Shown here in pieces: positions 1,191 through 30,475 of a stretch of DNA of 36,735 nt. The stretch's first letter is position 1; each line of letters starts with the position of its first letter. The stretch comes from Chiloscyllium plagiosum (lineage: Eukaryota): positions 9,902 through 46,636 of the forward strand of contig NW_025214577.1 in assembly GCF_004010195.1 (NCBI RefSeq), written 5' to 3'. Both the position numbers and the translations under genes were made by a program. The notes under the pieces were generated by a model. It did no database searches and was not told the DNA's origin. It worked only from the letters and a program-made list of their open reading frames with translations.

Positions 1191-2438
1191 TTTAATTCTT
1201 TCTATAGGTCTAGGCATGTCAAGGAACGGGCAAATATTGGTCTTTGGATCATATTAGGAAAATATGTCTGTGTTAGAGCACAATGACGAGTGGAATGGAA
1301 ACAAAAGTGTATTATTTCAATGAATTCAGTTCAATGAATTATTTCCTTATTATTGAGCCTTCGAGTAAATTTCATCAGCGATTGATCTGTCCACCTGAAG
1401 AACCGGTTTATACCCTCCTGTACCCTCACACGTTCCTCCTCACTGTGAACCACCATATCATCTTTGTATCATCCACAACATTATTTACCATTCCCTCCAA
1501 ACTCCATCCCTCCCATTCTCAGCATCATCGTTTATGAAGTTCACAACTAAGCCTTGAATTTATCCTGTTTTTCAGATGTTGTTCACAGGGAAAGCATCGA
1601 GAATTCCATTCTCTTTTTTTCCCTATTTTGGTGAATTTACAGCGTGATGCAGTTGAGTTTGTTTTTACGAGGGAGCCACAAATTTTATTTTGGATATGGA
1701 GCTGAAGTCTACTTTTATACGATGTTCCTCTGTATGTTTTATTAATTAAGCTTGTACGTAATTCGTATTGGATTAGGTTTAGATGGCTTTCACTGCAACA
1801 TTTGAGTTCCACGTGGGCCTGGATAATGTTCTTTGTGTCGTTCCCTGCAATAGTCAGAGCTGAAGGAAGTTTCCATCTCTACGATAGAGATAGATTCATA
1901 ATTTTGTTTGAAATAGTTGGAGTGATGAGGATAAAGATTCAACTAAATTCTATATCTTAACTCACAGCAGAAGATTTTGAGTGGGAGCAGCGTCGAAGTA
2001 AAAGCGAACCCGGGAGACTACAGCAAAGGTAAGACAGTTTGTTTTAAAATTGCTTACCTGTAGCGGGCAGCGGTGTGTTTTTTTTTTACTCTCTCTCCGC
2101 AGAAAGAGCGGGAGCAGCAGAGGAAGTGACGGCAAGCAGAGGGGCAGCCGGGAAGGAAAAGTGAGTATATAAGTCAGGAGGAGGAGATGGCCAAACCCGA
2201 GATTCTACACCTGTAGTATCTCCCACCCACCCTCCTCCTCTAACCTTCTTAACTACTCTGCTTTTTCTTTTAAGGTAAGGATTTTTATTTCTTTACCAGG
2301 GACTAGTTAAAAATTTACTTCGTTTTTTTGTGTGTATACATCAAGTCCTTATTTAGGGTAAAAAAAACCTATAACAGAGAGGTATCAGAAGCTATTATAA
2401 CTCATACTTGTACAAAGTAATTAACTAACTAAGCAGAG

Positions 2439-3398
2439 ATGGCTGGGCAGGTGATGTGCTGTTGCTGTATGATGTGGGAGCTGGCTGATCCCATTGTGAA
2501 CGGCAGTGACCACATCTGCAGCAAGTGTTGGTTGCTGGAAGAACTCCGGATCAGAGTTGATGATCTGCAATCTGAGCATCAAACACTGCGGCACATCTGG
2601 GAGGGGGAGAGTTACCTGGACGCTTTGTTTCAGGAGGCAGTCACACCTGGGAGAGTAAGTAATTCACATTCAGCTAGTGATCAGGCTCAAAAGAGTGTGA
2701 GTGTAAGTGAGGCAGGTAGGGGGAACCGGAGTTCAGGAGTGGAGGAGCCTCAGCCCTTGACCTTGTCCAACAGGTACGAGATTCTTGCTCCCTGTTCGGA
2801 TGAGGAAAAGGGCTCTGGACAGGATGAGCCAACTGACCAAGGCACCATGGTGCAGAAGGCCATTCAAGAGGGGGGAGCTAATAGACAAATAGTGGTTATA
2901 GGGGATTCTATAATTAGGGGGACAGATAGTATCCTTTGCAAGCCGGATCGGGAGTCTTGCATGGTGTGTTGCCTGCCCGGTACCAGGGTGCGAGACATCT
3001 CCGACCGGCTTGAAAGGATATTGGAGCGGGAGGGGGAGGATCCAGTTGTTGTGGTCCACGTTGGTACCAACAACATAGGCAAGACTAGGGTGGAGGACCT
3101 GCTTGGGCATTATGAAGCACTAGGCAGGAAATTGAAGCACAGGTCCTCAAGTGTCAAAATCTCCGGATTACTGCCCGAGCCACGTGCCAATTGGCATAGG
3201 GACAAGAAGATTAGGCAAGTAAACACGTGGCTAAGGGATTGGTGTGGGAAAGAGAGATTCCACTTCATGGGGCATTGGAATCAGTTTTGGAACAGGGGGG
3301 ATCTGTACCGTTGGGACGGTCTCCACCTGAACCGATCAGGTACCAATGTTCTAGCGAAGAGGATAAATAGGGTGGTCAGTAGGACTTTAAACTTCTGA
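2439..3398 (+). CDS. CR1 ORF1p, 319 aa: Cys zinc finger, leucine-zipper-like coiled coil, SGNH/GDSL esterase domain
   Basis: Uninterrupted ORF with CxxC...CSKC, the heptad LEELRIRVDDLQSE, and SGNH blocks GDSII, LPG, GTNN and DGLH. Confidence 0.93.
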   Translation: MAGQVMCCCCMMWELADPIVNGSDHICSKCWLLEELRIRVDDLQSEHQTLRHIWEGESYLDALFQEAVTPGRVSNSHSASDQAQKSVSVSEAGRGNRSSGVEEPQPLTLSNRYEILAPCSDEEKGSGQDEPTDQGTMVQKAIQEGGANRQIVVIGDSIIRGTDSILCKPDRESCMVCCLPGTRVRDISDRLERILEREGEDPVVVVHVGTNNIGKTRVEDLLGHYEALGRKLKHRSSSVKISGLLPEPRANWHRDKKIRQVNTWLRDWCGKERFHFMGHWNQFWNRGDLYRWDGLHLNRSGTNVLAKRINRVVSRTLNF

Positions 3399-4316
3399 GT
3401 TGGGGGGAAGGGAAAGTGAAAGCGACAGGGAGTATGGAGGTAAATGGCAAGATAAGCAGCAGGATAGCATGTTTCCAGGCGGATTTAAAATTGAGGCAGA
3501 CTGAGAATACTGTAAAAAGCAAGGATAACTTAGGACATATGACTTCCAACATCTCTAATGATAACGAAGTTAGCATTAAGGCACTTTACCTGAACGCTCG
3601 TAGCATTCATAACAAAGCCGATGAACTAATGGCACAGATAATAGTGAATGATTATGATGTAGTAGGCATCACAGAGACTTGGTTACAGGGGGGTCAGGAC
3701 TGGCAGTTAAACCTCCATGGTTTTTCAACTTATCGAAAAGACAGAGAGGTGGGCAGAGGGGGTGGGGTTGCCTTGTTAGTTAAGAACAAAATTAAATCTA
3801 TGATATTGAATGACATAGCGTCGGATGATGTGGAGTCTGTGTGGGTGGAATTGAGGAACCACAAAGGCAAAAAAAACATAATTGGAGTTGTGTACAGACC
3901 TCCTACCAGTGGTCAGGACCAGGGACGCAACATGTACCGGGAAATAGAGAAGGCATGTCAGAAAGGCAAGGTTACATTGATCATGGGAGACTTCAATATG
4001 CAGGTGGACTGGGTAAATAATGTTGCTAGTGGACCTAAAGAAAGGGAATTCATGGAATGCTTACAGGATGGATTTTTGGAACAGCTTGTCATGGAGCCCA
4101 CAAGAGAGCAGGCTATTCTGGACCGAGTGCTTTGCAATGAACCAGACTCTATAAAAGATCTTAAAATAAGGGAACCCTTAGGAAGTAGCGACCATAATAT
4201 GATAGAGTTCAATCTGGAGTATGAAAGGGAGAACGCAAAATCGGATGTAATGGTGTTACAGTTGAATAAAGGTAATTATGAGGGCATGAGAGAGGAACTG
4301 ACGAAAATAGACTGGA

Positions 4317-4488
4317 TGACCCTGCACATCTTTGGACTGTGGGAGGAAACCGGAGCACCCGGGGGAAACCCACGCAGACACGGGGAGAACGTGCAAACTC
4401 CACACAGTCAGTCGCCTGAGGCGGGAATTGAACCCGGGTCTCTGGCGCTGTGAGGCAACAGTGCTAACCACTGTGCCACTGTGCCACC
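4317..4488 (-). mobile_element. tRNA-derived V-SINE (HE1-like), lacking its 3' tail, flanked by a 45-bp direct duplication
   Basis: Minus strand shows A box TGGCACAGTGG, B box GGTTCAATTCC and V-domain TGTGTGGAGTTTGCACGTTCTCCCCGTG..GCTCCGGTTTCCTCCCACAGTCCAAAG. Flanks 4272-4316 and 4489-4533 match at 43/45. Confidence 0.92.
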
Positions 4489-4874
4489 GTAATTATGAGG
4501 GCATGAGAGAGCAACTGACTAAAATAGACTGGAAGCAGAGGCTAACCGGGAAGACAGTAGAGCAAAAATGGCAGGAGTTTGTAGGTATAATTGAGGACAC
4601 TCTACAGAGGTTCATTCCCAAGAAAAGAAAGATTAACCGGGGACGGATTAGACAACCTTGGCTGACAAAGGAAGTCAGGAAATGTATTAAAGAAAAAGAG
4701 AGATCCTATAAAGTGGCTAAGAACAGTGGGAAGTCAGAAGATTGGGAAGGATACAAAAGCAAACAGAGGATAACAAAGAGTGTAATAAGAAATGAGAGGA
4801 TCAAATATAAAGGTAGGCTAGCCAGTAATATTAGAAATAATGGTAAAAGTTTATTTCAGTACATAAGAAACAAA

Positions 4875-5160
4875 CGACAGGAAAAAGTAGACATTGGGCC
4901 ACTTCAAACTGATGCAGGAAGCCTAGTGTTGGGAGATAAGGAAATAGCAGGAGAACTTAACAAGTACTTTGCGTCAGTATTCACAGTGGAAGACATGAGT
5001 AATATCCCAAAAATTAACGACAGGCAAAAGTAGACATTGGGCCACTTCAAACTTATGCAGGAAGCCTAGTGATGGGAGATAAGGAAATAGCAGGAGAACT
5101 TAACAAGTACTTTGCGTAAGTTTTCACAGTGGAAGACATGAGCAATATCCCAAAAATTAA
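4875..5160 (+). repeat. 143-bp tandem duplication inside CR1 ORF2 (frameshifting)
   Basis: 4875-5017 and 5018-5160 both read CGACAGG(A/C)AAAAGTAGACATTGGGCC...CCCAAAAATTAA, with about 6 substitutions. Confidence 0.95.
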
Positions 5161-6390
5161 AGGGGTCACGGGACTGAGTTGAGTATGGTTGCCATTACGA
5201 AAGAGATAGTGCTAGAAAAGTTAAAAAGTCTTAAAATTGATAAATCTCCTGGCCCCGATGGGATACACCCTAGAGTTCTGAGAGAGGTGGCTGAGGAAAT
5301 AGCAGAGGCATTGGTTGAGATCTTTCAAGAGTCACTGGAGTCAGGAAAGGTCCCGGATGATTGGAAGATGGCTGTTGTAACCCCCTTCAAGAAAGGATCA
5401 AGGCAAAAGATGGAAAATTATAGGCCAATCAGCTTAACCTCGGTTGTTGGTAAAATTTTAGAATCCATCATTAACGATGAGGTTTCTAAATTCTTGGAAG
5501 AGCAGAGTCTGAGTAGAACACGTCAACATGGATTTAGTAAAGGGAGGTCATGCCTGACAAACCTGTTGGAATATTTTGAAGAGGTAGCAAGTAGGTTAGA
5601 CCAGGGAAACCCAGTGGATGTGGTCTATCTAGACTTTCAAAAGGCCTTTGATAAGGTGCCACACGGGAGGCTGCTGAGCAAGGTGAGGGCCAATGGTGTT
5701 CGAGGTGAGCTGCTGGTATGGATTGAAGATTGGCTGTCTAACAGAAGGCAGAGAGTTGGGATAAAAGGTTATTTTTCAGAATGGCAGCCGGTGACGAGCG
5801 GTGTCCCGCAAGGTTCGGTGCTGGGGCCACAGCTGTTCGCATTATATATTAATGATTTGGATGAGGGAACCGGGTGCATTCTAGCGAAGTTTGCCGATGA
5901 TACGAAGTTAGGTGGACAGGCAGGCAGTACTGAGGAAGTGGGGAGGCTACAGAAGGATCTAGACAGGTTGGGAGAGTGGTCCAGAAAATGGCTGATGGAA
6001 TTTAACGTGAGCAAGTGCGAGGTCTTGCACTTTGGCAAAAAGAATAAAAGCATAGACTACTTTCTAAATGGTGACAAAATTAATAAAGCCAAAGCACAAA
6101 GGGATCTGGGAGTGCTAGTCGAGGATTCTCTAAAGGTAAACATGCAGGTTGAGTCCATGATTAAGAAAGCGAATGCAATGTTGTCTCTTATCTCAAGAGG
6201 GTTGGAATACAAAAGCAGAGATGTACTACTAAGACTTTATAAAACTCTGGTTAGGCCCCATTTGGAGTACTGTGTCCAGTTTTGGTCCCCACACCTCAGG
6301 AAAGATGTGGAAGCTTTGGAGAGGGTGCAGAGAAGATTTACCAGGATGTTGCCTGGAATGGAGAATAGGTCGTACGAGGATAGGTTGAGC

Positions 6391-7088
6391 TTGCTTTCTC
6401 CTCTGTTAAATCTCCAGCCTTGATTTCCTGTCTATGCAACATCCCCAGCCATGTTACCGCTCTCTGTAACATCTCCACCCATGTTTTCTTATTTCTCTAA
6501 CATTTCAAGCTTTGCTTTCCTATCTCTGTAACATCTCAGCCTTGCTCTCCTTTCTCTGTAACATGAGGACTCGATGGGCCGAATGGCCTTACTTCCACTC
6601 CTATGTCTTATGGTCTAGGAAAGCAAAGCTGGAAATGCTGTTGTGTTAGGAATGCAATGCTGGCGATGTTGCAGACTGAGGAAAGGAAGACTGGATACGT
6701 TACAGAGAAATTAAAGCAAGGCTGGAGATGTTACACGGAAAGGAGAGCAAGGCTGGAAATGTTACAGAGAAAGGAAAGCAAGGCTCCTGATTTTACAGAG
6801 AGAGGGCAGAAAGGCTGGTGATGTTGCACAGATAAGAAAGTAAGGCTGGAGATGTTAGACCAAAAGGTATAGACATAGGAGTGGAAGTAAGGCCATTCGG
6901 CCCATCGACTCCTCATGTTACAGAGAAAGGAGAGCAAGGCTGAGATGTTACAGAGATAGGAAAGCAAAGCTTGAAATGTTAGAGAAATAAGAAAACATGG
7001 GTGGAGATGTTACAGAGAGCGGTAACATGGCTGGGGATGTTGCATAGACAGGAAATCAAGGCTGGAGATTTAACAGAGGAGAAAGCAA
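6391..7088. repeat. Inverted repeat with 218-bp arms (6391-6608 and 6871-7088) and a 262-bp spacer. Each arm is satellite plus a CR1 3' tail.
   Basis: The arms are reverse complements with about one mismatch (GAGGACTCG versus rc of CGACTCCTC). Confidence 0.92.
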
Positions 7089-8998
7089 AGCTTAAGATGT
7101 TACAGAGATAGTAATGCAAGGCTGGAGCTATTACAGAGACTGGAAACCGAAACTACAGATGTTACAGAGATAGGAAAACTTCGCTGGAGATCTGAGAGAA
7201 ATAAGAAAACGCGGGTGGAGATGTTACGGAGATATTAATTCAAGTCTGTAAATTTTACAGAGACTGGAAAGCAAGGCTGGAAATACTTAAGTGATAGGAA
7301 CATACTGCGGGATATATGAGAGACAGAAATAATCGGCTGGATATGTCACAGACATAGGAAAGCAAGGGTGAAGAGGCTCTAGGGATAGGAAAGCACATCG
7401 ACAGATGTCACCGAGATAGGAAAGCATGGTTCGATATTATACATAAATCGGAAAGCAAGGTTGAAGATATTGCAGAAAAAGGATAGCAAAAGTCTGAGAT
7501 GTTGCAGGGATAAGAAAGCAAGTCTGGAAATTTGACAGGAATAGGAAAGAAAGGCTGGAAATGTTATAATGACAGGAACACAATGTCAGAGATGTTACAG
7601 AGACAGTGAAACAAGGATCTAGAGATAAGAATGCAAGGTTGAAGATATCACAGAGGTAGGAAAGAAAGGCTGGAGATGTTGCAGAGATAGGAAAGCAAGG
7701 TTGGAGAGGTTACAGAGAGAGGAAAGCAAGGTTGGAGAGGTTACAGAGAGAGAAAAGCAAGGCTGGAGACGTTACAGAAACAGGAAAGCAAGGCTGGAGA
7801 TGTTAAAACAGAGATAAAAGCAAGGCTGCAGATATTACAGTGATAGGAAAGCTAGGCTGGAGATGTTACAGAGATTGGAAAGCAAGGCTGGCCATGTTGC
7901 AGAGACAGGAAAGCAGGGCTGGACAGGCACTAGAGATAGGAATACAAGGCAGAAGATAACAGAGATTGGAATGCATGGCTGGAGATGATAGAGATAGGAA
8001 ACCAAGTCTTGAGAGGTTACAAAGAGAGGAAAGCAAGGCTGAGATGTTGCAATGTTAAGAGTGCAAGGCTGGAAATTTTACAGAGGTAGGAAAGCTAGGC
8101 TGGAAATTTTATAGTGAGAGGAATGCAATTCTGGCCATGTTACACATATAGGGATGCAAGGCTGGAGATGTTACAGAGATAGAAAAGCAAGGCTGCTGAT
8201 GTTACAGAGAAAGGAATGCAAGGCTGGAGATGTTGCATAGGTATGAAAACAAGGCTGCAGATCTCACAGAGAGAGGAAAGCAAGGCTGGAGATGTTACAG
8301 AACGCAAGACTGGAAATTTTACAGAGATAGAAAAGCAAAGCTGGAAATGTTATAGTGTTAGGAATGTAATATTGCAGATGTTACAGAGACAGGAAAGCAA
8401 GGCATCACCTTTGACAGGAACGCAATGCTGACGATGTTGCAGACTGAGGAAAGGAATGCTGGATATATTACAGAGTAAAGAAAGCAAGACTGGAGATGCT
8501 AAAGAGAGGAAAGCAAGGTTGGAGATGTTACAGGGAAAGCAGACCAAGGCTGGAGATGTTATAGACATAGGAAAGCAAGGCTGGAGATGTTGCAGATATA
8601 AAAAAAACAAATCTGTAGATGTTGCAGAGAAAGCGAAGCAAGGCTGGCGATGTTACAGAGATACGAAAGCAAGGCTGTAAATTTTACAGAGATTGTAAAG
8701 CAAGGCTGGGAATGTTATGGTGATAGGAACGCACTGCTGGAGATGTCAGAGACAGAAATACTAGGCTGGACATGTTACAGGGATAGGAAAGCGAGGCTGG
8801 ACAGGCTCTTGAGATAGGAAAGCACATCTATGGATGTCACCGTGAGTGTAAAGCATGGTTCGATATGATACATGGATTGGAAAGCAAGGCTGGAGATGTT
8901 ACAGAGAGAGGACAGGAAGGCTGTTGATGTTTCAGAGATAAGAAAGCAACATTGGAGATGTTACAGAGAGAGGTAAGCAAAACTGGAGATGTCACAGA
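6617..8998 (+). repeat. ~31-bp satellite array, left block. Consensus GGAGATGTTACAGAGATAGGAAAGCAAGGCT.
   Basis: Dozens of diverged head-to-tail 30-32-bp units with a strongly purine-rich top strand. Confidence 0.97.
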
Positions 8999-9670
8999 TA
9001 TGAGAAACGAAGCTCACTGACTTCAATAATGTCAGTCCGAGACAAGATCTGAAGCAATCAGTATGTGTATTATCCGCTTGCAAGCGTGGTGCCTGAAATA
9101 GACGTCCAGAATTTAGCAAGTACGTATATTATGTAGGATTCACTACTTCAAACCCGGTGTCCATTACTATTATTTATCTCTTGCCTTATTTGGCCATGTG
9201 CTTAACAAAGTACAAGTTTTACTTGGCCATTTCACCACATCCTGGTGTGGTCTATTGTGAGGTATATCTTCCTTCACTACTATCTATTTCCCCCACTTGT
9301 GACATTTCCTTCCTTTACCCAACCATATTGATCCTTATGACCTTTTAATTGGGGTTTGTTTTTTGTTTTTTGCAGAAGTGGGAAACAGATGTTTATAACT
9401 CCTGCTTATACAAGCATATCTGGCTTAAACTACATACTCACAGCACCTTATCCCGTTGTCTGTAATATCTACCATTGTTTGCAGGCACGTTTCANNNNNN
9501 NNNNNNNNNNNNNNNNNNNNNNNNNNNNNNNNNNNNNNNNNNNNNNNNNNNNNNNNNNNNNNNNNNNNNNNNNNNNNNNNNNNNNNNNNNNNNNNNNNNN
9601 NNNNNNNNNNNNNNNNNNNNNNNNNNNNNNNNNNNNNNNNNNNNNNNNNNNNNNNNNNNNNNNNNNNNNN
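8999..9670 (-). repeat. ERV 3' LTR (its U3 start lies in the gap 9495-9671)
   Basis: 8999-9494 aligns with 16218-16702 at about 90% identity by hand count. The missing 172 bp approximately equals the gap size. Confidence 0.92.
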
Positions 9671-9671
9671 N

Positions 9672-11440
9672 GATTCCCTTTTAGGGGCATCTGTTTCATT
9701 AAGGCTGTCTCAATCAGTCTGTTGGTGGGTCCTCGTATACAGGGTATGATACAACAGTCATTGGTTACCAATATCCCGGAAGTAAGGGAAGTAAGAACGG
9801 AAACCACCACCCCCTTCCATTTTCCATACCATGATTCAAGCCATCCCGTGAGAGAAATGTGTACTCCTGAATTCTCAGCACGTTCCTCTGCTAACATAGT
9901 TAATCCACTTAAGGCCTGAGTAATTGAACCATCAGGCGCAGTGGTATTAGGAATAAAGGTTCAACAGCTTCCTCCTAACATTACAAACGCACACACACCC
10001 TTTTCCTGCTAAAATCATTTCAAGGACCATTCTGTTTTCCTATACCATCCTACTTGTCGCATCAAGCTGTTCTGATATTCCTTTTCCGCATATTTTGTAT
10101 AATATATACATCGCTGTTGATGATAGAAAATGTAATTTATCAAATCTACATTTTAATTAATTGTTACCCACCAAAAGAGAGCTGACTCAAAACCTGTTGC
10201 AATCTGGTTACGAGCCTTGAACTCGTTCGGTACCTCCCAAGAGACTCCTACAGAATCGAGATAAATCTTGAAATCAAAAGAAGTGTCTAACAGTGATCTC
10301 GTACTCCTTCCCTTTTTCTCTAGTATCTTTTCCTTCGCAACTGCCAGGGCAAATGGATTTGCCAATTGTACAATTGCACATATCCCTCTCCAATCCGTAG
10401 ATAGGGTAGGTCTCAATATTTTGCTTCCGTAGTACCACCATAGATCCGCTCGGGGCAAATTTAGTGTTGAGTAGTTCCCTCTCTTGTCCGTTTCGGTGAC
10501 ATTCTTAACCTCTGTACATACTTTCAGCTCCCACAAATCTCTCGACCGATTTGTACGTCGTCCATGCACACACGATGTGTGATTTCCGACTGTAGCTGAA
10601 ATCTTAGGGGGCCTTTGAATCTTTCTTCACCAAGGAAGGGAACATTAGAGATAGGGAGCTACAATTCCTATCATTCCATGCAGTCTTATCCTGATACAGG
10701 GCTATCATACATTCCATGCCCTTCCTGTCTCGCTTCCACCCGAGCGGAAAGAGAACCACCTTGGCCACTGGCCTACATGCATAACAATTGCTCTTGTTCA
10801 GACTTTTTACAGTATACTTTACCCATTCAACCCAGGCATTTGCATCCCCGTATCCATTTTCTACTTCAATGGTCTGTTTCAAGTCCTTTACCTCTATAAT
10901 TCTTACTACTTTAGGATCATCGGGAGGGGTGAAAGGTTGTACCTTATTATCCAGTAGTTCTGCTCGTTTTCCCTGTCATTCGCTAATTCGAAAACAACAG
11001 CCCGAGAAATCATTCCCGTTTGTTTTCATTCTATCCCAAATGTTTCATTTAATTGTACCTGATAGGTGCCGCACTAACACTTTCGCCCCCTCCAACCACC
11101 CACCCCCCAGAATTTCTTCATGCCATGTGGTTTTCTTCATCGTTAGGTATGTTGGGTTACACTTTTTATCGGGACAATCGCGAGCTGGTCGGAAGGGGGC
11201 CCCGTGTACTGTGACGAGACCATTATACCAAGTACCATCCCCAAGGCTATCCCCATAGGAATTAAGATGTATCTCTGAGCTGCGGTCATGTCTCTGATTA
11301 TCTCCATCCCTACAATTTACTAAGCTGCATGCATCAGTGTCTATTACTTGTGGATTATCAGACTCAGGAACCGTTAATAACGAATATGATATTTGACAAC
11401 ATTCCAAAACTAAGAGGGCTAACATCATACCTCTAAGCAT
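9672..11440 (-). pseudogene. env: ERV env (signal peptide, SU with CxxC, TM with ISD-like region, CX6CC remnant and membrane anchor), with stops and frameshifts
   Basis: Signal-like MLRGMMLALLVLECC. SU GYGDANAWVEWVKYTVKSLNKSNCYAC. RSTR cleavage-like site. TM EFKARNQIATGFESALFWWVTIN, QLDATSRMV*ENRMVLEMILA and GGSC*TFIPN. Tail CCIIPCIRG. Confidence 0.92.
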
Positions 11441-11539
11441 TCCCAGTATTCTAAAAATGGTGCTGAAGCACGAAAAGACTTAATACACAATCCTACAGAA
11501 ATAATCCCGCGCAGGCGTCGCCACTGTATAATCAGTTAC

Positions 11540-14353
11540 TCAAACTCTCTTTAGCCTGAGTTTCAGCGTTATTGCGTTGTTTCGTCTGTCCAGACTTCTT
11601 CCTCGACTGGATATTTCACTGGCCCTTTGATCCTTGTGTAGTGATTCCAGCCTTTCTCCGCTGTCCTTATTGCCGTTTCGGTCGTCAAAAGAGCCTGATA
11701 CAGCCCTTTCCAGTCCGGCTGCAATTTAGTCTCTGTCCATGATTTTACAAAGACCAAATCTCCCGGCCGGATGGGATGAACGGCAAATTCAAGGGGCGGA
11801 GTCTGTGCCAATAAACCCAGTTTCCTGAGGAAAGACAAAGAGACGGACAAGCCCAGTATATACTTTAAGAACAAGTCTTTAATTTCGGGAATTGGCAATT
11901 ATCCATTCATTCCCAGAATAAGGTAAGTCAAATAAGATTTCATATGGGGGATTGTCCCAAATCTTTCCTTTGGGCTGTTCGTACTCGCAAGAGGGCTATA
12001 GGTAAACAATTGGTTGGAGGGAGTCTGGTTTCTATTATCAATTTAGAGAGCTGGCGTTTGAGTGTTTGGTTCATTCTCAAAACCCTTCCTGATGATGGCG
12101 GGTGCCCTGGAGCATGGAACGCCAAGGAAATTCCCAACCCTTTCATTATCCTCGTAACACTTTAGAGGTAAAATGAGTTCCTTGGTCGGAATCTATACGG
12201 TTCACTCGNNNNNNNNNNNNNNNNNNNNNNNNNNNNNNNNNNNNNNNNNNNNNNNNNNNNNNNNNNNNNNNNNNNNNNNNNNNNNNNNNNNNNNNNNNNN
12301 NNNNNNNNNNNNNNNNNNNNNNNNNNNNNNNNNNNNNNNNNNNNNNNNNNNNNNNNNNNNNNNNNNNNNNNNNNNNNNNNNNNNNNNNNNNNNNNNNNNN
12401 NNNNNNNNNNNNNNNNNNNNNNNNNNNNNNNNNNNNNNNNNNNNNNNNNNNNNNNNNNNNNNNNNNNNNNNNNNNNNNNNNNNNNNNNNNNNNNNNNNNN
12501 NNNNNNNNNNNNNNNNNNNNNNNNNNNNNNNNNNNNNNNNNNNNNNNNNNNNNNNNNNNNNNNNNNNNNNNNNNNNNNNNNNNNNNNNNNNNNNNNNNNN
12601 NNNNNNNNNNNNNNNNNNNNNNNNNNNNNNNNNNNNNNNNNNNNNNNNNNNNNNNNNNNNNNNNNNNNNNNNNNNNNNNNNNNNNNNNNNNNNNNNNNNN
12701 NNNNNNNNNNNNNNNNNNNNNNNNNNNNNNNNNNNNNNNNNNNNNNNNATAATGTCAAGGCAGTTGTGCTCTGGATTCTGAGGAGAGTCTTCTTCCCCTT
12801 TCCAAAGAAAGGCAGCTGGATTTAAACAATTATCCGTGACCAACACTAGATCATCCTTTTCTCTTAATGTTGCCTCATATTTCAGAACCTGCCAGTCTGT
12901 CAACCATCGTCCACCTTTTTGGTTTAGGATCATTCTCACTTGGTGTGGGGTGCTTATTATTAGGGCTCCCCCAAATGTAAGCTCCCTGCTTTCCTCCACC
13001 AACAGTGCAGTTGCAGCCACGGCCTGCACACATTCAGGCCTCCCCCGGGATACTGGATCCAATAGCTTTGAAAGATATGCTACTGGCTGTTTCATTCCTC
13101 CCCACCTCTGGGTTAATGCTCCCAAATATGCTCCCTTATCTACGGTAGCAAAGAGGTGCAAAGGTTTATCTAGAGAAGGTAAGGCTAACACGGGGGCATG
13201 GATCAGATCTCTTTTGCATTCCTCAATAGTTCTTTTTCCTCATCTTTCCATATCAGACACTTTGATTCCTCCTCTAATAGTTTGAGATATAGTTTATTCG
13301 TCTTTTGAGCATAAGAATCAATCCACAATCTGCAATATCCCGTTAAACCCAAAAAAATTTCGTAATTCCCGTTTAGTCCTGGGCAACGGCATCCCCACTA
13401 TTCCCTCTATCCGTTGCAGGCTAATCTTTCGCTTTCTCTCACTAACTAAATGTCCCAAGTATTTCACGCCTCGCTCCACATATTGTAGTTTGTTTTTAGA
13501 TACTCGCAGTCCCTCCTGACCCAGGAGACTCAATAATTTGTTAGTGGCTTCTAGTACTTTTTCTCTTCTTCTTCCTGTTACTAAGAGATCGTCTACATAC
13601 TGCAACAGGGTAGTCCCTATGGGGCTGCTTAATTCCTCCAAAATTTATTCTAACATCTGTCCAAATAAATTAGGGGATTGCGCAAACCCCTAGGGGAGCA
13701 CGATCCACCGGTATTGCTGTTTCCGTCCTGTCTTGGGATCTTCCCATTCAAATGCAAACACATTCCTACTTTCCCTCGACAAGGGGCAAGCCCAAAAGGC
13801 ATACTTTAAATCTATCACACTAAACCATGAGGGATCTTACTTAATAACGTATAGGGATTTGGCACCACTGGGTGCCTGATCTGTTCTATTTGATTCAATG
13901 TTCTCAAATCCTGCACCAAACGATAAGCTCCATCGGATTTTCGCACTGGTAGAATTCGGATATTATAAAGAGACATACATGGCTCCAACAGTCCATCTCT
14001 AGCCCCTCAATTACTGGCTGCAGTCCTCGTTTACCTTCTATGGAAATGGGATACTGTAGCTCATAGACAATGTCCCCTTTCCTTTTCAAAGTTATTTCAA
14101 GGGGAGGGATCTGTATTCTTCCACGATTCACTTCTCGAGCCCTTACAAAATTGCCATTTGTGTTACCAGTTCTTTTTCCTGAATTCAAATCTCCAGTCCT
14201 AAGAGGGCAATTAAAACTCTGCCTAGTTAGTTACTTCCTATATCAGGGATATACAACAGTTCCTCTGTGTCTCAAATCCTTAGGACCGTCTATCATCATA
14301 GGTTCAAATATAGAAGAGTAAATCCTTCCCCTTTTACCCCGGAAACAGTAATT
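11540..14353 (-). pseudogene. pol: ERV pol (end of protease region, RT, connection/tether, integrase). RNase H and the IN N-terminus fall in a gap.
   Basis: LLQYVDDLL (YVDD at 13588-13599), VKYLGH, PVAYLSKLLDPVSRG, IN core IDSDQGTHF..SSGRVLRMNQTLK, and GPY/F-like WKGLYQALLTTETA. Multiple frameshifts. Confidence 0.95.
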
Positions 14354-14682
14354 NNNNNNNNNNNNNNNNNNNNNNNNNNNNNNNNNNNNNNNNNNNNNNN
14401 NNNNNNNNNNNNNNNNNNNNNNNNNNNNNNNNNNNNNNNNNNNNNNNNNNNNNNNNNNNNNNNNNNNNNNNNNNNNNNNNNNNNNNNNNNNNNNNNNNNN
14501 NNNNNNNNNNNNNNNNNNNNNNNNNNNNNNNNNNNNNNNNNNNNNNNNNNNNNNNNNNNNNNNNNNNNNNNNNNNNNNNNNNNNNNNNNNNNNNNNNNNN
14601 NNNNNNNNNNNNNNNNNNNNNNNNNNNNNNNNNNNNNNNNNNNNNNNNNNNNNNNNNNNNNNNNNNNNNNNNNNNNNNNNNN

Positions 14683-15902
14683 TTTGTCACAAAATATACT
14701 TTCAAAAGACCCTGTGCCACTGGGTCCTCAGGGTTCATTCCAGAGTATTTCCGCATTGAGTCTCTTTATCTTTGCAAGAAAGCTGAGGGAGTCTCAGCTT
14801 TCTCCTATCTAACTTCAAAGGCTTTAGTCAAATTCTGCGACTTGGAACTGCGTCTCTTATTCCTTTTTGAAACAGGTCTTGTAATTCTCTAATTTCTTCT
14901 CTATGCTCCGGGTTTTGATTTTCCCACTGGGGCTCTCTGAGGGAAACTTCTTCTCTCTCTGTCCAGCATCCCCATCCCCAATGGGATGTTCCCTGTTCCA
15001 TATTTCAATGGCTGCTCCTCGTATAAGCCCCCTTTCTTCCCCAGTAAATAATCTTTTCAAAATAGACTTTAACTCAGTCCACGTACACAGACTGGGCCCT
15101 AAGAAATGATCAATTTTTCCAGACTACCCTACCGGATCCTCACCCAGGACCTTCATCTCCTTCTGAAATGTTTTGATCTCCCCACTGGTGAGGGGGGCAC
15201 TTACAAACCCAATCTCTGTCCCCTATTGGTACCTCCCAAAGGCGATAAGTCTTAACGTTCTTCCCTTTTTTGTTTTTGTTTCCACCCTTAGACTTTGGTT
15301 TAAATACTCTGGAGGCCTCCTCTACATCTACTTTATCTTCCTTTTATTTTGTTAAGGACTGAGGGTGGGAAACAACAACATCGCCGTCCACCGCCCCTTC
15401 ATCCTTCTCTTGTGGGTCATCCATTCCCTGTCCCAGTCTGTCTGTCTGTCTCTCCTCCTCTCCGATTTTCACCTAATCTGATTTTATGGTATGGCGCGGG
15501 TTGGGGGTAGCAGCCAAGAGGATCCGAGGGACAGGGTGGGGCAGAGGGGGAATCTCTTGTCTTTACCATCATCATTCTCAAACTGTCGTTCCAACAGGAC
15601 TCATAGTCCGCCTCTGCTTGACTAAAAGGTTGTTTCTCATTCATATACAAATCTAAATACTGACATACCCATCCTCGTCCGAACCATACTTTGACCAGAA
15701 GACAGCCGGACGAAGGATTGGTTCTTTGGTCCATACTAAACAACAATATTTAATCATTTTCTTTGTATGTTTTTCCCTTGTACTAGTGTAACTTGTCCAT
15801 TCCCGCAATATCCTTTCCAATGGACTTTCAGGAGGAATATTACCAGCGACTTTTTCCTCCTTTACTCCGTAACAGTTCGACTTTCTCTGCCTACCCCCCC
15901 AT
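14683..15902 (-). pseudogene. gag: ERV gag (matrix + capsid). NC and the gag-pro junction are in a gap.
   Basis: ATG at 15902 with Gly2, followed by an extra G that shifts the frame. MA IPPESPLERILREW..KKMIKYCCLVWTKEPILRPAVFWSKYGSDED. CA LFTGEERGLIRGAAIEIW and MRKYSGMNPEDPVAQGLLKVYFVT. Confidence 0.92.
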
Positions 15903-15981
15903 TTCTCGGGGCCCTCGCCAGTCCCACAGCGATTAAATACCCCTTTTCCCAGCCACCAAGGCAATACTTAAAAGTCAGTTT

Positions 15982-15990
15982 TCTTACCTT
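15982..15990 (-). promoter_or_regulatory. Probable major splice donor in the ERV leader (AAG|GTAAGA, GT at 15987-15986)
   Basis: Consensus donor between the PBS and the gag ATG. Candidate env acceptors TTATTTCTGTAG (~11493) and TCTTTTCGTGCTTCAG (~11463) lie just upstream of env ATG 11440. Confidence 0.55.
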
Positions 15991-16198
15991 GGTCTGTGCA
16001 CAGAGTTGCCTGGCCCCTTTTTGCCGTAATTTCTAATGACCTTCTTGCACTGTCTGATTCAGATGTCTCTCTTGTGGGATTCGTACCATTCGGCCAAAGC
16101 AGCGCACCAAACCGGGACACGAGACCGCTCGCCAAATGGGAAAGGGACACGTCTTCCCAGTGTCCAGGGCCAGCCACTCCCCCTGGTGATGGAAGAAT

Positions 16199-16215
16199 AT
16201 CCCGGACGGTCTACA
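16199..16215 (-). promoter_or_regulatory. Degenerate tRNA-Pro-like primer binding site
   Basis: TGTAGACCGTCCGGGAT begins 2 nt after the 5' LTR. It shares TG and CGTCCGGGAT with the tRNA-Pro PBS TGGGGGCTCGTCCGGGAT. Confidence 0.7.
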
Positions 16216-16217
16216 TT

Positions 16218-16874
16218 TGTGAGAAACGAAGCTCACTCACTTCAATAATGTCAGTCCGACACAAGATCTCAAGGAATCAGTATGTTTATTATCCGCTTGC
16301 AAGCGTGGTGCCTGAAATAGACACCCAGAGTTTAGCAAGTACGTATCCTATATCGGATTCACTACTCCAAACCTGGTGCCCATTGCTTATCTCTTGCCTT
16401 AGCCGGCCTTGTGCATAAGAAATTACAAGTTTTACTTGGCCATTTCACCACATCCTGCTGTGGTCCATTGTGAGGTATATCCTCCTTCACTACTATCTAT
16501 TTCCACCACTTGTGACATTTCCTCCCTTTCATCAACCATACTGATCCTTATGGCCTTTTAATTGTTTTTGTTTGATTTTGCAGAAGTGCGAGACAGATGC
16601 TTATAACTACTGCTTATACAAACATATCTGGCTTAATCTGCATCCTCACAGCACCTCATCTATTTGTCTGTAACATCTACCATTGTCTGCAGGCACGTTT
16701 CATTCGTGTATGCACATTTTAGCTATTGCAAAAACAATTATATATTTCCTTCACATAGTTTCATTCTTGTTGACTCAGCTCTTAATTGAAACAATTATAC
16801 ACTGTTGTGAGTTAATTTACCTTGCATAAGTAATTATGATTGCAGAAGTAACACTATTTTACCTATATCTTACA
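16218..16874 (-). repeat. ERV 5' LTR, 657 bp
   Basis: Minus-strand termini are TGTAAGA...TCTCACA (imperfect inverted repeat). AATAAA lies at 16290-16285 and is mutated to AATACA in the 3' LTR. Confidence 0.94.
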
Positions 16875-16878
16875 CGGA

Positions 16879-19800
16879 GAAAATAAAGCAAGGCTGGAGA
16901 TATTACAGCGAAAGGAAAGCAAAATTGGAGATGTTGCAAAGATAAGAAAGCAAGGCTGGAAATTTTACAAAAATAGGATAGAAAGGCGGGAAATGTTTTA
17001 ATGAGAGGAACGCAAAGCCGGAGATGTTATAGAGATAGTAAAGCAACGCTGGCCTTGTTACAGAGTCAGAAAAGTAAGGCTGGACAGGCTCCAGAGATGG
17101 GAATGCAAGGCTGAAGATATCACAGAGGTAGGAAAGCAAGGCTGGAAATGTTGAAGAGATAGGAAAGCAAGGCTGGAGTTTTCACAGATAGAGGAAAGTA
17201 AGATTGGAGATGTTACAGAAACAGGAAAACAAGGCTGGAACTGTTAAAAGAGAGATAAAAGCAAGGCTGCAGATGTTACAGAGACAGGAAAGCAAGGCTG
17301 GAGTGGTTACAGAGACTGGAATGCAAGGCTGGAGATGTTGCAGAGACAGGAAAGCAATCCTGGACATGTTACAGACAAGGAAAGCAAGGCTGGGCAGGCT
17401 CTCGAGATAGGAAAACACGGCTGGAGATGTCACAGAGACTGGAAAGGAAGACTAGCGATGTTATAGGAATAAGAAAACAAGGCTGGAGATTTTATAGCGT
17501 GAGGAAGGCACGACTGGGAATGTTATAGAGACAGGAAAGCAATTCAAGAGATGTTACAGAAAAATGAAAACAAGGCTGGAGATGTTGCAGAGATAGGAAA
17601 GAAAGGCATGAAATTTTACACAGAGAGGAAAGCAGGGCTGGAAATGTTAGAGATACGAAGGTAAGGCTGTGGATGTTATAGAGACATGAAAGCAAGGCTT
17701 GAGATGTTACAGAGTAAGGAAAGCAAGGCTGGAGATGATACAGAGATAGGAATACAAGGCTGGAGGTGTTAGAAATAGTAGAAAGCAAGTCTGTAAATTT
17801 TACAGAGACAGGAAAGCGAGCGTGGATATGTTACAGAAAGTGGAAAGCAAAGCTCGATATGTTAAAAGAGACAGAACTGCAAGGCTGGGAATATTACAGG
17901 CATAGGAAAGCAACGCTGGATATGTTACAGGGATAGAAAAGCACATCTAGAGATGCTACAGAGATAAGAAAGCAAGGTTGGCAATTTCACAGAGATAGGA
18001 AAGCAAGGCTGGAAATGTTATGGTGATAGAAATTCAATGCTGGAGATGTTAAGGCGATAGGGATGCACGGCTGGAGATGTTACAGAGAAATGAAAGCAAG
18101 ACTGTAGATGTTACAGAGATAGGAAAGCAAGGCTGGAGTGGTTACAAAGAGTGGAATGCAAGGCTGGAGATGTTGCAGAGACAGGAGAGCAATGCTGGGC
18201 AGGCTCGAGGGAAACGAAAACACCGCTGAAGATGTCATAGAGATAGGAAAGCAGTGTTAGAGATGTTACAGAGATTGGAAAGCAAGGCTGGAGAAGTTAC
18301 AGAGATTTGAAAGGAGGCTGTAAATGTTAAAGAAATAAAAAAATAACGGCTGGAGATGTTACAGAGACAGGAAAGCAATTCAAGACATGTTACAGAAATA
18401 AGAAAACAAGGCTGGAGATGTTACAGAGATAGGAAAGAAAGGCTTGAAATTTTACAGGGAGAAGAACTCAGGGCTGGAGATGTTACAGAGACTGGAAATC
18501 AAAGCCGAAGTTGTTGCAGAGATATGTAGGCAAGGATGTGGATGATGCAGAGACATGAAAGCAAGGCTGGAGATGTTACAGAGATAAGAAAGCAAAGCTT
18601 GCAACCTTTCAGAGATAGGAAAACAAGACTGGAAATGTTATAGTGATAGGAATGCAAGCCTATTGAGGTTACCGAGATAGGGATGCACGGCTGGAGATGT
18701 TACAGAGATAGGAATGCAAGGCTGGAAATGTTGCAGAGATAGGAAAGCAAGGCTGGAGATGTTATAGAGATAGGAAAGCAAGGCTGGAGTGGTTACAGAG
18801 AGTGGAATGCAAGGCTGGAGATGTTGCAGCGACAGAAATCCATGCTGGACATGCTACAGAGAAAGGAAAGCAAGGCTGGACAGACTCTTGAGATAGGAAA
18901 GCCGGGATGGAGATTTAACTGAGAGGGGAAAGCAAGGCTGGAGATGTTACAAAGACAGGAATGCAAGGCTGGAGATGTGACAACGAGTGGAAAGCAAAGC
19001 TGGAGATGTTATAGGGAGACGATAGCAAAGCAGAAGTGGGCACAGAGATTGAAAAGCAAGGCTGTAGATGTTACAGACTTAGGAAAGAAAGGCTGGGGAA
19101 GTCACAGAGTTGGGGAAGAAAGGCTGGACATGTTACAGAGATAGGAAAATAAGGCTGGACAGGCTGTAGAGACAGGAAGACAAGGCTGGAGGTGGCACAG
19201 AAAAAGGAAATCAAGTCTGGACATGCTGCAGTGGAAGGAAAGCAAGGCTGGACAGGAACTTGAGATAGGAAAACACGGCTGGAGACGTAACAGAGAGGGG
19301 AAGCAAGTCTGGAGATGTTACAGAGACAGGAATGCAAGGCTGGCGTTGTGACAGTNNNNNNNNNNNNNNNNNNNNNNNNNNNNNNNNNNNNNNNNNNNNN
19401 NNNNNNNNNNNNNNNNNNNNNNNNNNNNNNNNNNNNNNNNNNNNNNNNNNNNNNNNNNNNNNNNNNNNNNNNNNNNNNNNNNNNNNNNNNNNNNNNNNNN
19501 NNNNNNNNNNNNNNNNNNNNNNNNNNNNNNNNNNNNNNNNNNNNNNNNNNNNNNNNNNNNNNNNNNNNNNNNNNNNNNNNNNNNNNNNNNNNNNNNNNNN
19601 NNNNNNNNNNNNNNNNNNNNNNNNNNNNNNNNNNNNNNNNNNNNNNNNNNNNNNNNNNNNNNNNNNNNNNNNNNNNNNNNNNNNNNNNNNNNNNNNNNNN
19701 NNNNNNNNNNNNNNNNNNNNNNNNNNNNNNNNNNNNNNNNNNNNNNNNNNNNNNNNNNNNNNNNNNNNNNNNNNNNNNNNNNNNNNNNNNNNNNNNNNNN

Positions 19801-21052
19801 NNNNNNNNNNNNNNNNNNNNNNNNNNNNNNNNNTAGAGACAGGAAGACAAGGCTGGAGGTGGCACAGAAAAAGGAAATCAAGTCTGGACATGCTGCAGTG
19901 GAAGGAAAGCAAGGCTGGACAGGAACTTGAGATAGGAAAACACGGCTGGAGACGTAACAGAGAGGGGAAGCAAGTCTGGAGATGTTACAGAGACAGGAAT
20001 TCAAGGCTGGCGTTGTGACAGTGAGAGGAAAACAAAGCTGGAGATGATGCAGGGAAACGAAAGCAATGCTGGAGTGGGTACAGAGAATGGATAGCAAGGC
20101 TGTAGACGTTACAGACATAGGAAAACCAGGCTGCTAATGTTACAGAGATCGTAAAGCAAGGCTGGAGATGTTAGTGAAATAAGAAAACAAGTCTGGAGAT
20201 GTTACAGGGGGAGGAAAGCTAGGCTGGAGATGTTACAGAAAAGGAAAGGAAGACTGGAGATGTTAAAAGAGAAAGAAAAGCAAGACTGCAGATATTACAG
20301 GGATAGGAAAGAAAGGCTGGAGATGTTACAGAGAGAGGAAAGCAAGGCTGAGATGTTAGAGAAACAGGAAAGGAAGACTGGAGATGTTAAACGAGAAAGA
20401 AAAGCAAGGCTGCAGATATTAAAGGAATAGGAAAGCAAGTTTGGCGATTTTACCGAGACTGGAAAGCAAGGCTGGAGATGTTATAGAGATAGGAAAGCAA
20501 GGCTGAAGATGTTACAAAGATGGGAATGCAAGGCTGGAGATGGCATAGTGACAGGAGCGCACGGCTCGAGATGTTAGAGGTAGAGAAACAAGGCTGGTCA
20601 TGTTACAGAGATAGGAAAGCAAGGTCAGACAAGCTTGTGGGACAGGAAAGTACGTCTAGAGATGTCACAGAGATAGGACAGCAAGGTTGCAGATGATACA
20701 TAGATCGGAAAGCAAGTCTGGAGATGTTACAGAGAGAGGACAGGAATGCCGGTGATGTTTCAGAGAAAATAAATTAGTTTTGGAGATGTTACAGAGAGAG
20801 AGATGGCAAGGCTGGAGATGATACCGTGAACAGAACGCAAGGCTGGAGATGTTACAGAAAAAGGAAAGCGAATTTGGAGATGTTGCAAAGATAAGAAATC
20901 AAGGCTGGAAATTTTACTGAAACTGGAAAGAAAGGCTGGAAATATTGCAGTGATAGGAATGCAATGCTGGATATGTTACAGAGATAGGGAAGCAAGGCTG
21001 GCCATGTTACAGAGACAAGAAGCCTAGGCTGGAAAGGCTCTAGAGCTAGGAA
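16879..21052 (+). repeat. ~31-bp satellite array, right block (contains gap 19356-19833)
   Basis: Same unit and orientation as 6617-8998. The array resumes mid-unit after the ERV TSD. Confidence 0.97.
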
Positions 21053-29479: not shown

Positions 29480-30475
29480 AAGTCAGGATTCTTGGCAGTG
29501 TGGAGAAACAAGGGGATTAGATTAGATTACTTACAGGGTGGAAACAGGCCCTTCGGCCCAACAAGTCCACACCGACCCGCCACCCACCCAGTCCCAGTCC
29601 CCTAATTTACCCCTTCACCTAATACTATGGGTAATTTAGCATGGCCAATTCACCTAACCTTCACATTTTTGGACTGTGGGAGGAAACCGGAGCACCCGGA
29701 GGAAACCCACGCAGACATGGGGAGAATGTGCAAACTCCACACAGTCAGTCACCTGAGGCGGGAATTGAACCCGGGTCTCTGGCGCTGTGAGGCAGCAGTG
29801 CTAACCACTGTGCCACCATGCTGCCCGAGACGGGATCTCGGGGTTCACGTCCATCGATCACTCAAGTTTATAGGGTTGACTTTTTTCCTTAACAGGAGGA
29901 TTGTGTTTACGAGCTGCGAGGTAATGCTACAGCTCTATAGAGCACTAGTTATACCACGTTTGGAATATTATGTTCCCTTCTGTTTGCCACATTGTGAGGA
30001 AAATGTGAACACTGCCGAGAGGGTGCAGATGTCTTTTGCCAGAATGCTGCCTGGACTGGAGGGCATGTCTCATTAAGGAACTGTTGATGAAGCCAGGCCT
30101 TTTCTTATTGGAGAAAAGAAGGAAGAGTAGTAATTTGATAGGGGTAATGAGAGGCATATGGAGAGTAGATAGCCAGAGACCTCTTCCCATGACAGAAATG
30201 GCTGTCGCAAGGGGACATAATTTTAAGGTAATTGAAAGTTTGGCTTAGATGACAGACGTAGCTGCTTTACACAGAGAGTGGTGGGTGTGTGGAATGCACT
30301 GACAGCGGTAGTAGAGTCAAATACATTGGGGGCATTTAATCAACTCTTCCTTCGGCACATGCATGACAATGAAATTAATGGTCTGTAGGTTAGTTTAATC
30401 TTACAGTAGGATTAAAGGTCAGCACAATATCAAGGGCTGGAGGGCCGGTTGTGTGCTATATTGTTCTATGTTTGA
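29480..30475 (+). mobile_element. CR1 3' fragment interrupted by a SINE; partial duplicate at 27970-28231
   Basis: Translates to DLGVHVHRSLK..LQLYRALVIPRLEYYV..ERVQMSFARMLPGLEG. The 3' UTR ends GGGCCGGTTGTGTGCTATATTGTTCTATGTT. Confidence 0.85.
29518..29826 (-). mobile_element. Full-length HE1-like V-SINE with CR1-derived tail and (TCTAA)n end
   Basis: A and B boxes, V-domain, and tail GTGTGGACTTGTTGGGCCGAAGGGCCTGTTTCC..TAATCTAATCTA. GGGAT is duplicated at 29513-29517 and 29832-29836. The paralogous site at ~28003-28007 is empty. Confidence 0.94.

Follow-up and report, generated by a model that had tools for sequence, protein, structure and literature searches.

A probable programmed -1 ribosomal frameshift signal at the ORF1/ORF2 junction of esterase-type CR1 LINEs

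The locus

The window, i.e. the whole stretch of DNA analysed (36,735 nt), carries at about 2000-6400 a LINE with an ORF1 coding for an SGNH/GDSL esterase (Pfam PF13472), an APE endonuclease in the -1 frame (PF03372, E 7e-17) and a reverse transcriptase (Table 1). This is the layout of the esterase-type CR1 group (an SGNH esterase in ORF1, the APE endonuclease and the reverse transcriptase in ORF2), and we considered the element a probable CR1-group LINE, a label taken from the domain layout and from similarity. An esterase ORF1 is reported for the CR1 clade (PMC3905857, in part), and among the interspersed repeats of the chicken genome CR1 ranks first in abundance (PMC11835228, in part). The nearest named relative of the ORF1 is a catshark protein (74% identity), and the source genome (3.56 Gb) contains thousands of candidate CR1 copies.

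The copy in the window is broken: its -1 frame is shut at 4453 by an insertion (about 4320-4490). The insertion is SINE-like, with a duplicated stretch of about 45 nt on its flanks, and a similar sequence occurs again at about 29630-29830; ORF2 also holds a tandem duplication at about 4875-5150. Two sister copies are better preserved: L218 has 777 codons open from the slippery heptamer onward and L219 a single stop within about 990 codons.

Table 1 Coordinates of the CR1 element and of its ORF1/ORF2 junction in the window
Feature	Position	Strand	Remarks
ORF1 of esterase-type CR1 LINE	2439..3398	+	319 aa; N-terminal Cys motifs, SGNH esterase; C-term ...SRTLNF*
ORF1 ATG; ORF1 stop TGA	2439; 3396-3398	+	320 codons
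TAG closing the -1 (ORF2) frame	3380..3382	+	one codon 5' of heptamer
Slippery heptamer T_TTA_AAC	3386..3392	+	X_XXY_YYZ phase
TTC and ORF1 stop TGA	3393..3398	+	
Conserved G tract GGGGGG AA GGG	3402..3412	+	candidate 3' stimulator; core +11..+15 and +18..+20 from heptamer end
In-frame ATG, -1 frame	3434..3436	+	fixed in window family, not across families
Open -1 frame	3383..4453	+	linker 189 nt (3386-3574), APE endonuclease from 3575
Reverse transcriptase part of broken ORF2	5161..6423	+	PF00078

Some further features of the window were recorded. On the minus strand, at 82-1090, lies another esterase-ORF1 CR1 copy, diverged and truncated shortly before the end of its ORF1, whose genomic relatives terminate GGT TTA AAC TAA. 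The 5' regions of both CR1 families have in common a C-rich CTCCCACCCAYCTCCTCCTC-like motif (window 2176-2240 and, on the minus strand, about 1050-1075), which in the window family is able to pair with GAGGAGGAG about 45 nt upstream and may form a conserved 5' UTR stem. By eye, and against consensus sequences, the CR1 5' region has a splice-donor-like AGGTAAG twice (2026-2034 and 2272-2280) and, directly 5' of the ORF1 ATG, a branch-point/acceptor-like stretch (2420-2438), which together may delimit a 5' UTR intron. A broken endogenous-retrovirus-like element lies on the minus strand at about 9400-16400, with matches to reverse transcriptase, RNase H and an MLV-type integrase C-terminal domain; it has many stops and assembly gaps, and its gag-like and env-like fragments matched nothing in Pfam. 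Degenerate tandem repeats, purine-skewed and with units of about 30-35 nt, occupy about 6400-9000 and 17000-21000.

The junction in the window copy

The original prediction, made from this copy, described an ORF1 that ends ACT TTA AAC TTC TGA, and the sequence agrees with it in all the coordinates given. T_TTA_AAC is in exact X_XXY_YYZ phase with ORF1, the stop follows after one codon (only TTC lies between), the -1 frame opens after the TAG and runs into the endonuclease, the two ORFs overlap by 16 nt (3383-3398) and a G-rich tract begins 3' of the heptamer, with its first run from 3402. The ATG at 3434 is in the -1 frame and in a good context, with A at -3 and G at +4, as had been claimed, and the junction peptide had been correctly derived for a tandem slip, LN-LLSWGEG. 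An ORF2 start further 5' is impossible because the TAG at 3380-3382 closes the -1 frame. The ending TTTAAACTAG, given in the prediction for other vertebrate CR1 ORF1s, was present in metagenome-derived loci.

T_TTA_AAC is the sole in-phase canonical X_XXY_YYZ heptamer among the 320 codons of ORF1, and the background of such heptamers upstream of the site, over 17 families, is 9 in 1700 codon positions. The presence of a heptamer at the ORF1 end is more than chance. In most families the stop comes directly after the heptamer, the window family having one codon (TTC) between; an extra residue after LN occurs in the window family and in one chimaera protein. In two database proteins (P0034 and P0089) and two loci (L040 and L139) a one-base indel just before the heptamer makes ORF1 read directly into the ORF2 frame (..GFKL..). 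These fusion-like sequences are most likely decayed copies and we did not consider them as evidence on the mechanism.

RNA reads were available in four runs, of which one gave about 7-fold raw depth at the junction, another none and the remaining two contigs. Among the rows listed for the stretch from 2300 on, beside which stand 198 substitution rows and 166 loose ends, none shows an indel or a joint within 3380-3440; the reads come from diverged copies and are too shallow to bear on splicing.

Collection of junctions

We collected 217 loci, by searches of the element's own genome and from metagenomes (67 loci). The own-genome queries were the junction, the second CR1 family of the window and three divergent ORF1 ends, and the best 30 loci were taken for each. 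Two protein queries contained the terminal LN, which means a selection on residues, not on codons. With a profile that ends seven residues short of the ORF1 C-terminus we anchored 183 of the 217 loci; 12 loci were removed by inspection as non-vertebrate or non-LINE esterases and 7 were removed for N or contig ends. The final set consisted of 164 copies in 23 clusters, represented by shark families and by sturgeon-, bird- and turtle-like elements. The hosts of the metagenome loci are known only through protein matches, i.e. to sturgeon-cluster proteins (L061, 97-98%), to bird-named or neighbouring unnamed proteins (39-70%) and to turtle proteins (L095, 61%), and host labels are therefore by similarity.

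The heptamer was found in 30/30 copies of the window family; these copies were left out as evidence of constraint because they are 98% identical and were picked by similarity. Since counts per copy are inflated by kinship, we considered one copy per cluster as the fairer test, with each representative picked blind to the junction; the clusters are related, and these counts too are non-independent.

Conservation of the heptamer

The exact heptamer stood in the fixed register in 120 of the 164 copies and nearby in 133. Among the 123 copies with Leu-Asn in register, Leu was encoded by TTA in 123, Asn by AAC in 122 and the preceding base was T in 121. The same picture was obtained with cluster representatives, in which the terminal Leu was TTA in 17/17 (one of them, the truncated L031, was aligned by chance), against 45/256 for nearby Leu codons, and the terminal Asn was AAC in 15/15, against 65/130 for nearby Asn codons. 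The base before TTA was T in 19 of 23 clusters, the four exceptions being truncated or shifted copies, and the codon that carries this T varies (GCT, GGT, ACT, CAT, TGT, TCT). At other conserved Leu columns the commonest codon reaches 25-73%, and identical residues have the same codon in 45% of the cases between clusters. The internal L-N of the DGLHLN motif is near-fixed per copy too (CTG 132/138, AAC 132/138); its Leu is less fixed per cluster (CTG 16/22).

At the protein level, L317 and N318 were invariant in 36/36 aligned ORF1 proteins (32-86% identity) from sharks, rays, coelacanth, bony fish and lizards, and the residue preceding LN could be encoded by NNT in 64 of 65 proteins. The heptamer is thus conserved at its synonymous sites, and the synonymous variation that was to count against the original prediction occurred in none of the intact families. 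The 44 copies, out of 164, without the exact heptamer in register and the 28, out of 106, with an out-of-frame endonuclease were read as decay after insertion.

Among distinct ORF1 tails, 82 of 143 ended in LN. A sister clade of 24 proteins (SH-aLRT 96, in a quick tree) had as last or next-to-last dipeptide GN in 10, KN in 2, LN in 2, GF in 2 and FF in 3, that is 19/24, with five ending otherwise; judged on protein sequence, these dipeptides would match other classic shift sites. For two of the FF proteins a perfect heptamer is impossible, given the residue in front of the dipeptide (Gln, Glu). Two other clades, of 10 and 14 proteins, were without such ends. Searches of viral and prokaryote collections gave no DNA for the GN/KN/GF clade, and a viral scan with the vertebrate ORF1 alignment was empty.

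The -1 frame and the ORF2 start

We could place the start of the endonuclease in 106 of the 164 copies, and it was in the -1 frame in 78 and in the other two frames in 18 and 10. Linkers free of stops were found in 65 of the 106 placed copies, with a length of 87-267 nt. The majority linkers of five multi-copy families measured 189, 126, 141, 132 and 147 nt and those of single loci 87, 99, 141, 216 and 267 nt. A variable frame offset would have spoken against the prediction; the offset was a constant -1 in the five multi-copy families, a sixth (old, with unstable G runs) giving no majority linker. Nor were there stops between the heptamer and ATG 3434, the -1 frame of the window family being open to the endonuclease in 29/30 copies. 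On the 5' side of the heptamer, the -1 frame was closed within five codons in 11/17 families.

An ORF2 ATG that is not conserved across families, as the prediction expected, is what the linker survey gave. In the 65 open linkers no start codon was conserved at the ORF1 stop, whether overlapping it or close by, a result that tests an AUG-dependent start only: according to family or locus, the first in-frame ATG was at codon 3, 4, 16, 22, 31, 38 or 60, or missing. Precisely, 19 of the 65 open linkers had no ATG at all, and in one family it was missing in 8/9 open copies; an in-frame ATG near the stop occurs in several families. Entry at the heptamer predicts a linker that is free in sequence and length and yet open from the heptamer, and such a linker was observed. 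The family of L159-L187 combines an intact heptamer with a stop-start overlap, TAATG, in the ORF2 frame and, as far as its sequence tells, could use both routes, frameshift and stop-start.

The G tract and the search for a 3' stimulator

Counting from the heptamer, G was present at +11, +12 and +13 in 20/20 clusters, at +14 in 18, at +15 in 16 and at +18, +19 and +20 in 17, 18 and 14, respectively. The window family is a natural test because its stop is displaced by one codon with the spacing between tract and heptamer unchanged, the distance being the same as in the other families. In the ORF2 frame, +14 and +20 fall on the third base of Gly codons; they are mostly G, against 55/162 GGG among the Gly codons elsewhere, and therefore the constraint looks partly nucleotide-level, although a Gly-x-Gly peptide constraint may contribute to the conservation of the tract.

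A G4Hunter-type score ≥ 1.2 was reached in 12/17 families, and a four-run quadruplex cannot be drawn for all 17. In the 80 nt 3' of the heptamer no significant stable fold was found in the 17 families (z from -1.7 to +2.1), a long-range duplex scan of 20 longer loci gave no shared partner, and Rfam returned no stimulator structure, its single hit, to the 5' region with E 0.97, being due to chance. The original prediction had likewise seen no clear downstream pseudoknot. The G tract, at its short fixed spacing, is a candidate 3' stimulator on sequence grounds.

Proposed mechanism

From the motif, its phase and conservation, the open -1 linker, the lack of a conserved AUG and the fixed spacing of the G tract, all read directly from the sequences, we infer that the junction is probably a programmed -1 frameshift site, at which slippage, helped by a stimulator, would give an ORF1-ORF2 fusion. 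The Gag-Pol-like fusion put forward in the original prediction thus has good in silico support, and a -1 frameshift cassette of this kind is likely to be common to the esterase-type CR1 LINEs of jawed vertebrates. Translation would end for most ribosomes at the ORF1 stop next to the heptamer. In a minority of them tRNA-Leu and tRNA-Asn would move from UUA and AAC to UUU and AAA, one base back, and reading would go on through the linker, the endonuclease and the reverse transcriptase, producing a fusion of about 1,300 aa (318 aa followed by about 990 codons). Because no conserved hairpin or pseudoknot was seen, we would assign the putative pause to the adjacent stop codon and to the G tract at +11..+20, which might act as a protein-binding site or as a weak G-quadruplex.

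Alternative explanations

The same junction could be a place where ribosomes, held by TTTAAAC, the stop and the G tract, terminate and restart near the ORF1 stop with or without an AUG. In its favour, the stop adjoins the motif in nearly all families, an overlapping TAATG is found in one shark family (6/9 open copies), an in-frame ATG stands at codon 4 in three bird-type loci, the window family has ATG 3434 in its good context, and AUG-independent initiation is thought likely for mammalian LINE ORF2 (PMC5009743, in part). We hold such reinitiation to be unlikely all the same, as it leaves unexplained the in-phase X_XXY_YYZ form of the conserved letters, the constant -1 offset with a frame open from the heptamer, and a G tract spaced to the heptamer and not to the stop; moreover, the first ATG is scattered from codon 3 to codon 60 or is missing.

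The conserved letters might also serve the RNA or DNA outside translation, for example in the splicing of an ORF2 mRNA (acceptor or branch point), in packaging or ORF-protein binding, or through polymerase slippage. ACTAAT resembles the branch-point consensus, CAG/G comes soon after it in several shark families, and GTTTAAAC is a palindrome; but the polypyrimidine tract is missing, CAG is missing in the window family and in the bird-type loci, where present CAG lies <10 nt from the putative branch point, and none of these roles gives a reason for a fixed codon phase, so that we give them a very low probability. Least probable of all, and largely refuted, is a protein constraint by which ORF1p needs a C-terminal Leu-Asn with codons inherited by chance. 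It would account for the invariant L-N of the 36 proteins, and the Leu of DGLHL is likewise codon-biased (16/22). However, three synonymous positions are fixed jointly across lineages at a median protein identity of 32%, the window family and the one chimaera protein tolerate a residue past LN, and the sister clade replaces LN with GN, KN, GF or FF.

Discussion

How LINE ORF2 is translated is only partly settled, and the best-studied models yield a separate ORF2 protein. In SART1 this is reportedly achieved through translational coupling. Mammalian L1 has, like CR1, a bicistronic LINE RNA with ORF2 downstream of ORF1, and makes ORF2 as a separate protein by (re)initiation, whereas CR1 would make a fusion (PMC5009743, in part). 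A -1 frameshift is not unprecedented in non-LTR elements, since it is stated to be required for ORF2 in Dictyostelium TRE5-A and TRE3-A (PMC5911963, in part); these belong with CR1 to the APE-type non-LTR class and share with it an ORF2 made via -1 frameshift, as proposed here for CR1, and differ from it in an unrelated ORF1 and an amoebal host.

Among viruses, the coronavirus IBV uses U_UUA_AAC, identical to the CR1 heptamer, and as in IBV and in retroviral gag-pol the CR1 heptamer is in phase at the end of the upstream ORF and leads to a -1 ORF that carries the polymerase and lacks a conserved start codon (PMC5009743, in part). CR1 departs from them in being a non-LTR retrotransposon whose stop adjoins the heptamer and for which no 3' pseudoknot or stem-loop was detected. 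Frameshifting in pea enation mosaic virus requires a stop codon that lies 3 nt past the heptamer (PMC5009743, in part), and by analogy the stop of the window family, exactly one codon past the heptamer, might have a similar role, with a different heptamer and host. The PRRSV frameshift transactivated by nsp1beta/PCBP depends on CCCANCUCC 11 nt 3' of the shift site (PMC5009743, in part). CR1 has likewise a short linear motif at +11 instead of a structure, an analogy of position alone; the PRRSV motif is C-rich and that of CR1 is G-rich.

We found no proposal of a CR1 frameshift in the literature searched, a scope outside which lie the founding CR1 papers (Haas 1997, Kajikawa 1997, Kapitonov and Jurka 2003), and the term CR1 is absent from the first 300,000 of the 449,034 characters of the 2016 frameshift review. 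According to the part of this review considered, no natural case of G-quadruplex-stimulated frameshifting was known (PMC5009743), and a structure-free G-rich stimulator would be unusual. A broader reading, which we regard as possible but doubtful, is that esterase-type CR1s across jawed vertebrates, together with the heptamer-swapping sister clade, make a Gag-Pol-like fusion of esterase, endonuclease and reverse transcriptase driven not by a pseudoknot but by the linear G tract at +11, either bound by a host or element protein or folded as a natural G-quadruplex, with an ORF2 output that could be regulated in trans.

If the programmed -1 frameshift is true, a cassette of about 30 nt would have several consequences for CR1 biology. 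The CR1 reverse transcriptase would be born fused to the ORF1 esterase, and the frameshift would determine the ratio of ORF1 to ORF2 and, like Gag for Pol, keep the enzyme attached to the particle. ORF2 annotations that begin at the first ATG would then be wrong, and CR1 retrotransposition assays would have to retain the native junction.
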